Shown: positions 13,853 to 39,249, counted from the stretch's first letter. The stretch is 64,000 nt of DNA from an uncultured Planctomycetota bacterium (GCA_963845755.1 CAWJTV010000020.1:608001-672000), one strand, 5' to 3'. Notes: generated by a model from the letters alone, not told the origin. Translations and numbers: made by a program.

Positions 13853-14746
13853 ATGACGATAGCGAATCCAGGTGATCAGCCGGACCGCAGATGCGATCAG
13901 CGATCTCCCGCCACAAGACGGTCGTTCCTGGCAATGATGACGGCGCTCATCGGTCCCGCCGCGTCCGCCCAGGACGACTCGGAGGGCCGCCGCAAGTCGA
14001 GCGCGCGCCTGGAGGCGATGCGGCGGTTGGTGAAGGAGGTCAAGGTCTGCGAAGTCACAGAGGGGAAGCCGGGACCGCCGCTGGCGCTCCGACCGGATCC
14101 GCTGCTTCGCTATACGAACCCCACCCTGCGTGTGATCGACGGGACCCTCTGGGCCTGGGGCGAGCGCGGACGGCCGACCGCAGTTCTGAAGCTGGGATTC
14201 ATCAGACAGGAGGGTGATCCGAGCCATTGGCGATTTCGCGTCAACGTGCTGTCGCCGAAGCCGATCGAGGTCGAGTTCCCCGATGGCCCGACCTGGACCT
14301 CGCGAACGCCTGGGCTGGAGCTACGGCCGCTGCCCAACGCGCCGGCGCCGACCGGCTCGGCGGCTCAGCGTCTCGCCCAGGCCAAAGCCATGGCCCGGCG
14401 GTTCTCGGCCAGTGCGAAACCTCTCAATCAGAGCGGCCGGACCCAGTTCCGGCTGCTCACTCAGCCGATCGCTCGATATAGTGACCAGGCAGCCGGTCTC
14501 CTCGACGGGGTGTTTTTCAGTTTCGTCTACACGAACAACCCATCCGTTCTCCTCGTGCTCGAGACCTGGTCGGAGGGCGCCGGAGTGAGCACCTGGCGTT
14601 ACGCCTTGGTCAGGCAGGGCGCAGGCGAGTACTCCGCTCTCCTCGACGGCAAACCGGTCTGGAGCGTGCCGGCCGCCGGCCCACCGGCTGATGCCGGATT
14701 GTTCATCGTACGACAAATGTCCGCAAGCCCAGCGGAACAAGATTGA
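13853..14746 (+). CDS. Unnamed exported family, paralog P1 (Tat-like leader)
   Basis: GGAGGA then ATG 13853; TRRSFL leader ending ASAQ; family motifs DGxLWxWGERGRP, PGLELRPLPNAPAP and FRLLTQPIARY...DGVFF. Confidence 0.85.
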   Translation: MTIANPGDQPDRRCDQRSPATRRSFLAMMTALIGPAASAQDDSEGRRKSSARLEAMRRLVKEVKVCEVTEGKPGPPLALRPDPLLRYTNPTLRVIDGTLWAWGERGRPTAVLKLGFIRQEGDPSHWRFRVNVLSPKPIEVEFPDGPTWTSRTPGLELRPLPNAPAPTGSAAQRLAQAKAMARRFSASAKPLNQSGRTQFRLLTQPIARYSDQAAGLLDGVFFSFVYTNNPSVLLVLETWSEGAGVSTWRYALVRQGAGEYSALLDGKPVWSVPAAGPPADAGLFIVRQMSASPAEQD

Positions 14747-14868
14747 CCGAATCGAGCCGACGTGGAAGGCTGGAGGGCTACAGGCCCGCACCCGACCACC
14801 TCCCAGGTGATCGACCAAGACTCCCCTGACCCCGAACGGCTCCGACACATATCCCAGGAGATGCCTCT

Positions 14869-15753
14869 ATGGAGCGAGCGATCGGAGATGATCGACGGCA
14901 CCTCACCCTCGAGGAGCCATGCTCCGCCACGAGGCGGTCGTTCCTGGCCATGGTGGCGGCCCTCATAGGCCCCGCTGCGTCCGCCCAGGAAGAGGTCGAC
15001 GACCGCGACCAAGCAACGCGCCTGGAGGCGTTGCGGCGGGTGGCGAAGGGGCTCAAGGTGTGCGAGGTCAGAGAGGGGAAGCCGGGCCCGCCGCTGGCGC
15101 TGCGGCCCGAGCCGTTCCTGCGCTTCAGTTCTCCCGTCTGGAAGGTGGTCGATGGCGCGCTGTGGGGTTGGGGCGAGCGTGGGCGGCCTTCCGTACTCAT
15201 GAAGGTGGTACGCCGGGGACCGAGGCGCGATCAGTTGCACTGGCACGCCAACGTGTCCGTGTTGTCGCCGAGACGGGTGGAAGTTGAGTTTCGCGATGGT
15301 GTGAGATGGTCGTCCCGATTGCCCGGGCTCGAATTGCGGTCCTTCCCCGATGCACCCGCGCCGGCGGACTCGGCGGCCCATCGCTTCATTCAGGCCAAGG
15401 AGATTGCCCGGCGGATCTCGATCAGCACGCAGGTCCCCAATCCGATCGGCCGGGTCCAGCTTCGGTTGCTGCCCCGACCGATGGATCGCTATAGCGACCC
15501 AAAGGTCGGTCTTTGGGACGGAGTGTTTTTCTGTTTCGTCAATGAGAGCTCACCGGCGGTTCACCTGATGCTCGAGGCGTGGTCCGAGGGTGTGGGGGAG
15601 CGCACCTGGCGTTACCTCTTCGCGAGGCAGGGCGCAGGCGAGGGGATCGCCTTCCTCGACGGCAAACAGCTCTGGAGCATGCCGGCCGTCCACTTACCGG
15701 CCAATACGGACTTGTACATGGGGCGACCGCTGCCCGATAGCGCCGCGGAATGA
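14869..15753 (+). CDS. Unnamed exported family, paralog P2 (Tat-like leader)
   Basis: Close relative of P1 (TRRSFLAMVAALIGPAASAQ, KPGPPLALRP, LRLLPRPMDRY...DGVFF). Confidence 0.85.
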   Translation: MERAIGDDRRHLTLEEPCSATRRSFLAMVAALIGPAASAQEEVDDRDQATRLEALRRVAKGLKVCEVREGKPGPPLALRPEPFLRFSSPVWKVVDGALWGWGERGRPSVLMKVVRRGPRRDQLHWHANVSVLSPRRVEVEFRDGVRWSSRLPGLELRSFPDAPAPADSAAHRFIQAKEIARRISISTQVPNPIGRVQLRLLPRPMDRYSDPKVGLWDGVFFCFVNESSPAVHLMLEAWSEGVGERTWRYLFARQGAGEGIAFLDGKQLWSMPAVHLPANTDLYMGRPLPDSAAE

Positions 15754-16059
15754 TGACGACTTCGCGTTAGTCCTGAGGAATCCGCGAGGATCGCCTCTCC
15801 AGTCGGGTTCGCGCCACGCTGGCGGATGTCCCACGGTCGTGCGACGGACGACTCGGCGCGGTATGCTCAGAGTGACCCGGAAGTGGCGGTTTTCCCGTCC
15901 GACTCAGTTGGACGAGAAAGCGGTCAGGTGTCGTTTTTCGGATGGTTTCGGGGACGATTCCAGGGACGGAACGACGACTCCAGACCAAGCCGGGCCGCAA
16001 CCTCAGCCTGTTTTCGAGATTATCGTCGTTTCGAAAGTGATTTGAGCGAGGGCGCGGAA

Positions 16060-16998
16060 TCAGTCGCGTGCCGAGGGGGCCTGGGGCTTCCGCGCCAGGA
16101 AATACGTATCCTCGGGCGTGGGGACCGCTTTGAACAGATGCGTCCAGACGTCCTGCCGGCCGAGTCGGAGCGTCGGCTCGGCGCGGGTGAGCGGCCCCGC
16201 GGCATACTTCCAGACCGGCGCACTTCCGCCACGTCTCTGCGCCTCGAGGACGAGCAGTACCTCGGGATTGGTGCCGTTGGCGAACGCGAAGACCGCTCCG
16301 TCCATCAGGCCCGATTCCGCATCCGCGTAGCGGTCGATCGGATGAGAGACCGGGCGAAGCGTGTAGTCCTGGGAATTGATGTTGTAGAATTCGGCGCCGA
16401 GAATCGCTTGGCCAGATCTCTCATCTGCCGCAGCCGCTCGGCTTCACCCGCGGCGGGGGCCGGAGCGTCGGGAAACTCGCGGAACGCGAGCCCGCCCTTC
16501 ACGGGTGCCCATCGCAGCCGGCCGTCCGGACGGGGCGGGAACAAGTCCGAGTAAGTCGTGTCGAAATGCTCACCGCCTTCGACCTCGATCGGTCCGATCG
16601 CGAGCGACGTGAACTCGATGCCGCCAGACCGGGCCAAATGCCTTGTTTTGTGGATAGAGCTCGATGGCGAGCACGGCGATCGGCCGGCCCGAAGACCTCC
16701 AGGCCCAGAGCGTGCCGTCGCTGTTCTCGCGCGTCGGGTCGGTCCATCGGTAGAGCGGGTCACGCGTCAGGGCGGCCGGATTTTTTTTGCTGCCGCCGTC
16801 GATCGTAGCGGCCTGAAACGAGGCGGCGATCTGCTTCATCTCGGCGAGGCGCTGAGCTCGGGCGTCCTCCCTCGCGACCGGCGAACTGGGAGCCTGGGCT
16901 GCCGCCCACTGGCCGGCAGCCCCGAGCGCGATGAGCAGCGCGGCGAGCGCGGGCAAACGTCCGGACAGCTGCGGCGCGTCGAGACGCATGGCGGACAT
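16060..16998 (-). CDS. Unnamed exported family, paralog P3 (several apparent frameshifts)
   Basis: Pieces in ORFs 16570..17046, 16305..16763 and 16060..16305: signal peptide, PLYRWTDPTR, GRPIA, RLRQMRDLAKRFSA, DGAVFAFANGTNPE. Confidence 0.8.
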
Positions 16999-38159: not shown

Positions 38160-38225
38160 GAGATCACCGGCCCGCGGGCAGGACCCCGCCAAGATGAGCA
38201 ACCAACAGGACAGGTTACGATGCAC

Positions 38226-38266
38226 GTCGTATGACTACAAATATCGCCGACGCTCGGGGATGTCAA
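38226..38266 (-). promoter_or_regulatory. Promoter with putative BlaI operator, copy 2
   Basis: Minus strand reads TTGACA-N13-GCGATATTTGTAGTCATACGAC, upstream of P14. Confidence 0.75.
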
Positions 38267-38331
38267 CGAAATTCTTCGGGAGGTCGTTTTCCCCGGTCGC
38301 GACCCACCATTAGAGACCCACTCCCACGGAA

Positions 38332-39249
38332 TCAAGGGAAGTCCTCCGGCGAATCGCTTTTCCGTTGGATCGCATCGTTGCTGTGATAGATCTCGTTCTC
38401 CCTTCCGAGCGTCCGAGGACCCGAGAAGACCTCGTGGTTTTCGATCCGGACGTGGATTTCCATGTCGGTGAACCGAGCGATCGCATATTCCCAGTGCGCC
38501 GCCTTCCCCTCGCCATGCAGTTCGAGGAGGAGGAACGCCTCGGGATCGGTCCCCTGGACCAGGGTGAAGAGCGCACCGTCCTGCTTCTCCTCTCGATAGA
38601 GAGGCTGGATCAGAGGCCGCAAGGGCCAGGTTGAGCCCTTATCGTCAACCGTGTTCGCCGAGAACTCGCGGAGAATCGCCCGCATCTGGCGCAAGCGTGC
38701 CGGGGCGGTGTCGGCCGGCGCGGGGGCGTTGGGGATCGGTTTGAAGGTCACTCCGGGCTGCGACGTACGCCCCACGGTCCGGTCCCGCCAGGTTACCTCG
38801 ATCGGCTCTGTCGTCAGGGAGTGCCGTTCGTGGAGGATGACGCGGCGGCCATCGGGCCATTTGTACGTGAAGAAACTCACGACCGCGACCGGCCGCCCCT
38901 CGCGCACCCAGAGGTAGAGCGCACCATCGTCGCCGCCCCGGACCGGTTGCGACCAGCGCAAGAGGGGCTCGGGGAGCATCCGAGCGTCCTCCTTGCCGTC
39001 GGGTCCGATGCGGACCGCGTGTTCCCGCGCATGCCGCTGGAAAAGCGGGAACCATTTCCCTTTGACGTCCTTCGCCGTCGGGCTGGATTCCTGACCGTAT
39101 CCGCGCGGCGAGGTTGCAATCCACCCCGCCTCCATCAGGAACCCGGATAGGATCATCGCGCCGAACCGTACGGAAATCGCAGACATGGCCCTGGCGACCC
39201 GCGACGAAACGTCGGCGAAACTGAAAATCGGGATCTTCGCGCTCTTCAT
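38332..39249 (-). CDS. Unnamed exported family, paralog P15 (start at 39249 or 39186)
   Basis: PLLRWSQP, DGALYLWVREGRP, HERHSL, RLRQMRAILREF, LRPLIQPLYR, DGALFTLVQGTDPE. Confidence 0.85.
   Translation of the reverse strand: MKSAKIPIFSFADVSSRVARAMSAISVRFGAMILSGFLMEAGWIATSPRGYGQESSPTAKDVKGKWFPLFQRHAREHAVRIGPDGKEDARMLPEPLLRWSQPVRGGDDGALYLWVREGRPVAVVSFFTYKWPDGRRVILHERHSLTTEPIEVTWRDRTVGRTSQPGVTFKPIPNAPAPADTAPARLRQMRAILREFSANTVDDKGSTWPLRPLIQPLYREEKQDGALFTLVQGTDPEAFLLLELHGEGKAAHWEYAIARFTDMEIHVRIENHEVFSGPRTLGRENEIYHSNDAIQRKSDSPEDFP

Follow-up and report, generated by a model that had tools for sequence, protein, structure and literature searches.

Why should a bacterium keep fifteen copies of one unnamed protein side by side? 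The question is raised by a stretch of 64,000 nucleotides from an uncultured Planctomycetota bacterium (GCA_963845755.1 CAWJTV010000020.1:608001-672000; hereafter the window, in which all coordinates are given unless another locus or contig is named), where a reading made from the DNA alone had noticed a series of paralogs, taken to be exported proteins, between positions 13853 and 39249. All 15 copies lie in or beside a single co-directional cluster of MoxR, DUF58, BatA, DUF4175 and BatB-like genes. On balance, we favor the view that their products are exported periplasmic subunits, adaptors or clients of an extended, Bat-like MoxR module, and that the family would be a lineage-specific, multi-copy component of the Bat-like envelope module of Planctomycetia.

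From P15 back to P3 (the copies are numbered by position), 19 co-directional genes follow one another over 23 kb, with gaps of mostly 0-110 nt. The operon core, consisting of MoxR, DUF58, BatA_N/von Willebrand factor A (vWA), DUF4175 and vWA/GATase1-like genes in that order, lies between P6 and P4 on the same strand, with 6 nt between MoxR and DUF58. The only non-family open reading frame (ORF) within the upstream array encodes a caspase-fold protein of clan CD. P1 and P2 come after a gene for an EF-hand protein and lie on the strand opposite to the array. Promoter and terminator scans were uninformative (one promoter-like site against 2.3 expected, and 12 terminator-like sites against 11.7 expected).

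The same arrangement recurs in other genomes. We mapped the module in 15 genomes of four planctomycete families, ten of them Isosphaeraceae (9 genera) and five from three other families. In all ten Isosphaeraceae the order is copies (slot A), the clan CD gene, copies (slot B), MoxR, DUF58, copies (slot C, in 9 of 10), BatA, DUF4175, the BatB-like gene and copies again (slot D, short of which the stretches from genomes G008 and G392 stop); slot B is empty in G399 and G353. In all five genomes of the other families, the best DUF58 (50-66% identity) and BatA (34-46%) orthologs lie among family copies, which are inserted between MoxR and DUF58, DUF58 and BatA, BatA and DUF4175, or DUF4175 and BatB, after BatB, and around the clan CD gene. 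That gene lies inside the array or adjoins it in 14 of the mapped genomes (in the fifteenth, G446, the stretch ends too soon to tell), and an EF-hand homolog adjoins the module in 13, the exceptions being G001 and G008, whose stretches are perhaps too short. The EF-hand gene stands at the flank in 8 of 10 Isosphaeraceae and upstream of MoxR in the other families.

In 9 of 10 further positive genomes the BatA ortholog (55-75% identity) lies inside an array, the tenth being too fragmented to place. BatA relatives reach at most 34% identity in five of five family-negative Isosphaeraceae (93-99% complete), and DUF58 relatives at most 42% in five of five genomes of another taxonomic family (f4) that hold no copy or one. 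Arrays and this operon subtype co-occur in 15 of 15 genomes and are absent together from 10 of 10. Since the junctions that hold copies differ between lineages, inherited synteny alone hardly explains the linkage.

Carriers of the protein family were found among 4 of 31 close relatives, 16 of 121 genomes (12 of 53 genera) of the bacterium's own taxonomic family, and 37 of 401 genomes of its class, in four families (f1, 10/98; f3, 5/44; f4, 18/97; f5, 3/88). Phylum-wide, with few candidates scored per genome, 3 of 301 genomes were positive. The genome of the window (G000, 14.27 Mb) holds 28 family loci, 15 in this one cluster and 13 on other contigs or at other places of the same contig, besides one short relic; a search for related loci with a single protein returned 2 loci.

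All-against-all BLASTP of the ORFs in the window, together with a hidden Markov model (HMM) built from 12 full-length copies, bore out the proposed count of 15 paralogs. Pairwise E-values among the copies run from 1e-30 to 1e-150, far past chance. Eleven are uninterrupted ORFs of 248-297 amino acids (aa), three are split by single-base frameshifts (two in P3, one each in P6 and P14), and P8, with an internal deletion, is the only remnant. Every shared motif listed in the sequence-only reading is present in the consensus of the 12-copy alignment (A1), and the subfamilies it had drawn among neighbors agree with the identities found: 57% for P1/P2, 52-58% for P3/P4, 51% for P13/P14, 61-64% within P7/P9/P10 (with P8) and 72-75% for P11/P12, with P6 at 48-53%. 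G+C content at third codon positions is 0.74-0.82 in the copies, matching neighboring genes; the window as a whole has a G+C content of ~65% and carries DUF1549/DUF1553/DUF1501 genes typical of Planctomycetota. The copies are given below with HMM E-values, slots and, against the congener G001, ratios of nonsynonymous to synonymous substitution rates (dN/dS, by the Nei-Gojobori method).

13853-14746, + strand: P1, E 4e-102, twin-arginine translocation (Tat) motif TRRSFL; 1:1 ortholog in G356 at 67% identity
14869-15753, + strand: P2, E 2e-99, Tat motif TRRSFL; 57% identity to P1
16060-17118, - strand: P3, HMM positions 7-115, 126-174 and 175-273 in three ORFs; two single-base insertions or deletions (indels)
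17194-18057, - strand: P4, slot D (after the BatB-like gene), E 1e-95; G001 ortholog at 86% aa identity, dN/dS 0.29
26717-27541, - strand: P5, slot C (between DUF58 and BatA)
29575-30414, - strand: P6, last ~45 residues in another frame past a CCCC run; long tree branch, 0.67
30468-31280, - strand: P7, slot B, E 9e-101
31311-31709, - strand: P8, remnant of the P7/P9/P10 type aligned to P9, HMM positions 205-260 only
31710-32540, - strand: P9, slot B, E 2e-105
32602-33420, - strand: P10, slot B, E 3e-106
33490-34377, - strand: P11, slot B, E 3e-106; 72-75% identity to P12
34443-35282, - strand: P12, slot B; the copy used for the AlphaFold2 model
36311-37171, - strand: P13, slot A, E 3e-99; G001 ortholog at 85% identity, dN/dS 0.21
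37171-38159, - strand: P14, one frameshift near 37930-37960
38332-39186, - strand: P15, slot A, E 2e-94; G001 ortholog at 80% identity, dN/dS 0.24; start likely at 39186, placed at 39249 in the earlier reading

The other genes of the module in the window are the following, with transmembrane segments abbreviated TM.

11953-13299, + strand: exported EF-hand protein, 448 aa (Pfam EF-hand_6/1/5/7)
18125-20819, - strand: BatB-like membrane protein, TM-TM-vWA, GATase1-like, C-terminal TM (Pfam VWA, GATase1_like)
20928-24374, - strand: DUF4175 protein, 1148 aa, three N-terminal TM segments (Pfam PF13779; TM scan)
24687-26637, - strand: BatA-like protein, two N-terminal TM helices, vWA, C-terminal TM (Pfam BatA, VWA_2, DUF4350)
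27545-28453, - strand: DUF58 protein (Pfam PF01882, E 1e-46)
28460-29503, - strand: MoxR AAA+ ATPase (Pfam AAA_3, E 5e-61; AAA_lid_2)
35326-36297, - strand: exported caspase-fold (clan CD) protein (Foldseek; Pfam Peptidase_C13 at E 0.018 only)

On the near side of P1, the WD40, DUF1549/DUF1553, DUF1501 and EF-hand genes share one strand (5176-13299, +), with the stop of DUF1501 and the start of the EF-hand gene overlapping at 11953-11956; at locus L001 (5440-11179) a family copy likewise comes after WD40, DUF1549 and DUF1501 genes. Beyond the array lies a run of very large beta-helix/NosD-like ORFs (41527-54755, -), where two ~1400-aa paralogs (46451-50815 and 50688-54755) share 49% identity over 971 residues, with a stretch of ~89% on another frame. 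A tandem trio with 52-62% mutual identity (59353-60426, 60427-61542 and 63230 to the window's end) occupies 59353-64000 (+).

What kind of protein has been multiplied here? The sequence-only reading had recognized no named domain, and the 12 copies indeed have no meaningful match in Pfam, NCBIfam or PADLOC. At E<=0.1, Pfam matches were limited to DUF58/VWA on the fused ORF of P5 and a chance-level TetR_C_33 (E 0.086); the sole NCBIfam hit had E 0.013 and 15.6 bits against a cut-off of 100; and PADLOC matched 0 of 12. These searches brought up no characterized family that would explain the expansion. A sequence profile search of the PDB gave a best E of 0.14, and the ESM Atlas returned unnamed Planctomycetota clusters and no named one. 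The family is large all the same: a profile search of 1.84 billion representatives, with clusters counted at 50% identity, found 3652 clusters at E<=1e-3 and 1525 at E<=1e-30. In a second search, all 120 matches listed were 'hypothetical protein' or unnamed, without Pfam domains.

Modeling of P12 with AlphaFold2 on alignment A1 gave a predicted local distance difference test score (pLDDT) of 86.8 and a predicted template modeling score (pTM) of 0.83. The model consists of a disordered signal region, a helix at residues 31-46 with about seven strands, and a second helix at 151-163 with about seven more. When the N-terminal and C-terminal halves were compared by hhalign, they proved homologous (probability 98.3%, E 1.9e-14, 102 columns), so the protein is an ancient tandem duplication of an alpha+beta module of ~120 residues. 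In this confident model, each module is predicted to be one helix packed against a sheet that six or seven antiparallel strands form. Foldseek found no PDB match to it at E<=0.001, the top rows being MHC class I and LolA-like chains at a TM-score of 0.1. A wide VIA-align search reached at best Z 7.0, for the periplasmic domain of YidC, with none at Z 8 or above and with glycoside-hydrolase N-terminal sandwiches and a designed cystatin-fold protein at Z 6.2-6.9; Z ~7 is the level that the method states for models without a true match, and we treat these scores as noise.

Export is indicated by an N-terminal hydrophobic signal-like segment, found in most of 80 full-length copies from 10 genomes; in about 6 of the 80 it is missing, and there the open frame begins too late. 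The sequence-only reading's claim of export stands in this measure, which is a heuristic. An S/T-R-R-x-F-L twin-arginine motif is present in all seven members of one orthogroup (P1, P2 and five orthologs in G356, G370 and G390), so that this one subfamily may be exported folded; the other orthogroups look Sec-type. Judged by these signals, the family most likely comprises proteins of ~250 mature residues, exported via Sec or, in one orthogroup, via Tat.

Orthologs of BatA have a short N-terminus, a first TM helix, a positively charged loop and a second TM helix (N-terminus compared with G356 and G390). This order would place the vWA domain outside, in the periplasm, in agreement with the topology of Borrelia BB0173, whose vWA domain was mapped experimentally as periplasmic (PMC5700661). 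The DxSxS motif of the BatA metal ion-dependent adhesion site (MIDAS) is intact, D53, S55 and S57 being invariant in 8 orthologs (A2). Since the family, clan CD and EF-hand proteins are predicted to be exported to the very compartment of the vWA domain, we propose that the family proteins are periplasmic subunits, adaptors or clients of the MoxR-driven vWA machine.

The clan CD protein itself was modeled with a middling pLDDT of 68.4, and Foldseek matched the model to metacaspase, legumain, GPI8 and MALT1 (E 3e-7, probability 1.00, TM-score 0.45-0.55). The predicted product of 35326-36297 accordingly shows the caspase/legumain fold. Among 8 orthologs (A4), His144 in a G-H-G motif is invariant, and the segment expected to hold the catalytic Cys reads T-[SAP]-[AS]-S-G, with Ser187 invariant; these dyad positions were set by motif reading and not by residue-level structural alignment. 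With Ser at the expected Cys site, the protein is perhaps no protease. The orthologs also share two DxDxDG-type loops, and dN/dS between G000 and the congener is 0.09.

A constant scaffold with diversifying surfaces had been expected from the sequence alone. The scaffold was found, with 21 invariant columns among the 12 window copies (A1) and 25 positions conserved in at least 90% of the 80 copies. The diversification was not. In a tree of the 80 copies (IQ-TREE quick mode, LG+G4), copies group by slot and not by genome, requiring 12 changes of label where 200 shuffles averaged 43.6 and none came as low; dN/dS between same-genus orthologs is 0.21-0.29; and variability shows no concentration, the mean column entropy of helices (2.37 bits), strands (2.04) and loops (2.45) differing little. 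For P1, P2, P4, P5, P13 and P15 there are 1:1 orthologs in other genera, two distinct subfamilies occupy slot C, and within orthogroups the sequences are well conserved. Copy number per slot differs between genomes. P11/P12 and P7/P9/P10 are duplications within the lineage of G000 of genes that are single in other genera, which agrees with the earlier suggestion of growth by tandem duplication.

Selection on the family matches that on the envelope genes of the module (dN/dS of BatA 0.19, DUF4175 0.24, VWA2 0.23, GATase1-like 0.19); the cytoplasmic genes MoxR and DUF58 stand at 0.04 and 0.05, and recent within-genome paralogs at 0.24-0.45. Slot clustering and the low ratios between orthologs together point to old specialized paralogs with a few recent duplications. 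By these sequence comparisons, the family is not one of fast-diversifying immunity proteins. Among the roles in binding, immunity or as adaptors that had been suggested, binding or an adaptor role stays the most plausible in general; immunity lacks backing, with no PADLOC match and no toxin-like neighbor.

Are the broken copies signs of turnover? Core genes of the operon are broken here just as often. The BatB-like gene, an unbroken ORF (839-900 aa) in G001, G356, G390 and G399, extends over three frames in the window; the first TM helix of BatA is in another frame (about 26540, -); and MoxR and DUF58 are also split in several related assemblies. No stop separates DUF58 from P5, and the two share a frame (27541-27560, -). 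At this junction G001 has a TGA stop (TTT TGA) and a 27-nt spacer; in the window TTTTGA is there too but out of frame, hence the apparent fusion; a true DUF58-P5 fusion protein was rejected on this ground. P5 has its own Shine-Dalgarno-like GGGAGAG, ATG and signal segment.

Among the sequencing runs listed as sharing sequence words with the window, none is of RNA, and the only two that reach 5-10% of the words are soil metagenomes, whose contigs cover little. One contig of 242 nt (depth 2.3) has an extra base after 37932 that would rejoin the P14 frames, and none of the contigs bridges the DUF58/P5 junction, the P6 shift or P8. Given the equally broken core genes and the P14-rejoining contig, the frameshifts in P3, P6 and P14 are most likely assembly indels, or else very recent polymorphisms. 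P8, of which the beginning of helix 1 and the final ~85 residues are all that is left, is certainly a remnant, and the only certain one. Pseudogenization as a sign of birth-and-death turnover was dropped as an explanation, the core operon genes being frameshifted just as often. These observations suggest indel-type assembly errors throughout the contig and serve as a warning that most apparent pseudogenes in this assembly are probably such errors.

In the module that we propose, MoxR and DUF58 would act in the cytoplasm, and BatA and the BatB-like protein would sit in the inner membrane with their vWA domains in the periplasm. Further parts would be a DUF4175 protein anchored in the membrane and two exported proteins, the clan CD pseudo-peptidase and the EF-hand protein. 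The family proteins would dock on the periplasmic parts, whether the vWA/MIDAS domains, the DUF4175 protein or the clan CD protein. The old orthogroups, at least 10 in number, may differ in specificity, and spares would be added now and then by tandem duplication, as happened in this genome. It is this docking, as a physical association, and with it what is bound, that we infer. A complex prediction of BatA (36-580) with Mg and P5 (22-274) gave an ipSAE of 0.00 in two runs without controls, and is no evidence either way.

Several observations weigh against a role tied to the module. Related genomes are non-independent, so part of the linkage is inherited synteny. In G000, 13 of 28 loci lie outside the cluster among heterogeneous neighbors (Ser/Thr kinases three times, a sulfatase, DUF1559, DUF1553, a subtilase and transposases), and no dispersed copy adjoins MoxR, one short relic apart. 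G123 and G312, which lack the operon type, have single copies, so the fold can work outside the module. There is no fusion to another domain among the best 150 representatives, which have 215-356 aa save for one of 545 aa, an apparent tandem double; longer fused forms numbered 0 among 7999 candidates, which is weak evidence. Finally, no fold or sequence match hints at a biochemical activity.

As to the dispersed loci themselves, the relic (L022, G000:C27:139050-139181; E 2e-7) has one internal TAA and lies 1.4 kb upstream of a different MoxR gene, with a TIGR03067 gene ~10 kb downstream of the latter. At L011 9587-10813, L020 9169-11097 and L008 10743-12695, three dispersed copies have mobile-element genes within 1.5 kb, namely ISL3-type transposases and a reverse transcriptase of a group II intron. 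At L018 (7120-9696, G000:C36), a copy follows a sulfatase gene on the same strand after a gap of 3 nt.

According to the leading rival, the proteins are free-standing periplasmic or secreted binders, for example of anionic or sulfated glycans or further ligands of the envelope, with no part in a MoxR/vWA mechanism, and the cluster is a tolerated and inherited site of duplication. The 13 dispersed loci stand alone, L018 adjoins its sulfatase, and the single copies of G123 and G312 lie 0.1-5 kb from sulfatases; four near-invariant Arg and three near-invariant Trp residues would suit such ligands, and the weak top folds (Z 6.5-7.0) share the beta-supersandwich of YidC and glycoside hydrolases. 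However, sulfatases are very numerous in these genomes, so adjacency to them is weak evidence, and Z ~7 is the noise level of the method. Insertion between core genes that differ from family to family is also hard to fit to one permissive site, and arrays and operon type are jointly present in 15 genomes and jointly absent from 10. We regard free binders as unlikely.

A second possibility, that the proteins are tandem cystatin-like regulators or inhibitors of the embedded clan CD protein, appears improbable. Cystatins have a helix enclosed by an antiparallel sheet of five strands and carry a Q-x-V-x-G hairpin motif, and neither the consensus nor the invariant columns of A1 show such a motif. 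The module does consist of a helix on a curved antiparallel sheet, and its best single-module match is the designed protein 4r80 (Z 6.2, root-mean-square deviation 3.1 Å, 74 of 76 residues), but this score is within noise and no natural cystatin appears in the top 50. The recurrent clan CD gene (14 of 15 mapped genomes) would provide a target, and cystatins are known to inhibit legumain (title of PDB entry 4n6o). Against this, the clan CD protein has Ser in place of the expected Cys and may not be a protease, ten orthogroups would be excessive for a single target, and dispersed copies have no clan CD neighbor.

MoxR-vWA ternary conflict systems have caspase-fold proteins nearby, planctomycetes included, as the study describing them states (Kaur, Burroughs, Iyer and Aravind, 2020, eLife; PMC7159879). 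That the copies are rapidly diversifying immunity, adaptor or conflict proteins, perhaps of such a system, is very improbable: the many tandem paralogs, the copy number that varies per slot, a MoxR match to Pfam bpMoxR (E 9e-11) and the WD40 genes nearby (602-2710 and 5176-8919) are outweighed by purifying selection, positional 1:1 orthologs across genera, export of the proteins where those systems are cytoplasmic, a far better MoxR fit to AAA_3, the blank PADLOC result, and an operon with DUF58 and BatA_N, DUF58 going unmentioned in what is accessible of that study.

Returning to the periplasmic partners of a Bat-like module, a bolder form of this proposal can be framed, which we hold to be rather doubtful. 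The family would supply the missing periplasmic ligands of Bat-type vWA/MIDAS domains, as at least 10 specialized adaptors, each of two modules and exchangeable. Joined by the EF-hand protein and the clan CD pseudo-peptidase with its Ca loops, these would form a calcium-dependent scaffold in the periplasm, remodeled by MoxR-DUF58 from the side of the cytoplasm. For the Tat orthogroup, MoxR/DUF58 would control a loading or folding step in the cytoplasm that precedes export. If true, this would be the first concrete client set for the MoxR-DUF58-BatA system.

Whichever form applies, a large unnamed family is co-inherited and interleaved with one operon subtype in four planctomycete families, and this makes its members concrete, testable candidates for periplasmic partners. 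The two-module proteins constitute a new family that deserves a name. Four carrier genomes are single contigs (G501, G554, G566 and G617), which suggests growable isolates. Our literature searches found no paper on the family or on the module in planctomycetes.

How does the locus compare with known systems? With the conflict systems of PMC7159879 it shares a MoxR and vWA core. Those systems are cytoplasmic and, in the accessible text, are described without DUF58 and BatA_N and with an effector-fused vWA protein, whereas here the variable partners appear to be exported and are under purifying selection. Their signature is a cytoplasmic vWA protein fused to an effector or adaptor, together with iSTAND, FtsH or a beta-propeller; the vWA protein found here is of the BatA_N membrane type.

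Cystatin-like and NTF2-like rolls (4r80, the PepSY protein YpmB 2gu3, and the VirB8-type 4kz1 and 4nhf) resemble the single module in having a helix on a curved antiparallel sheet, and matched it at Z 4.3-6.2 over 65-80 aligned residues. They differ in that two modules stand in tandem here, with scores at noise level and no sequence similarity. The TIGR03067 family (Planc_TIGR03067) is unrelated: NCBIfam gave no hit to it, and hhalign against seven TIGR03067 members of G000 gave probabilities of 0.3% for the N-terminal module and 0.1% for the C-terminal one.

The closest relatives are the Bat-type operons. MoxR-DUF58-BatA operons are widespread in bacteria and have for ~25 years been linked to aerotolerance, envelope integrity and virulence; to our knowledge, they have no known mechanism, substrate or function. 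The Rhizobium RL3499-RL3502 cluster is counted among them, and the classical Bacteroides operon has proteins of the BatC/BatE type, which contain tetratricopeptide repeats (TPR); no gene in our cluster has a Pfam hit to a TPR family at E<=0.001. In common with the Bat type, Borrelia bb0170-bb0176 included, the planctomycete module has co-directional MoxR (AAA_3) and DUF58 genes, a two-TM BatA_N vWA protein with DxSxS, and a second TM-vWA protein, here with a GATase1-like domain; its vWA domain is predicted to be periplasmic, as in BB0173 (PMC5700661). Unlike the Bat type, it adds a DUF4175 protein, a putative clan CD pseudo-peptidase, an EF-hand protein and 7-15 family copies. The operon type is already known as Bat-like; new are the exported family interleaved with it in many copies, the added clan CD and EF-hand proteins, and an orthogroup apparently exported via Tat.

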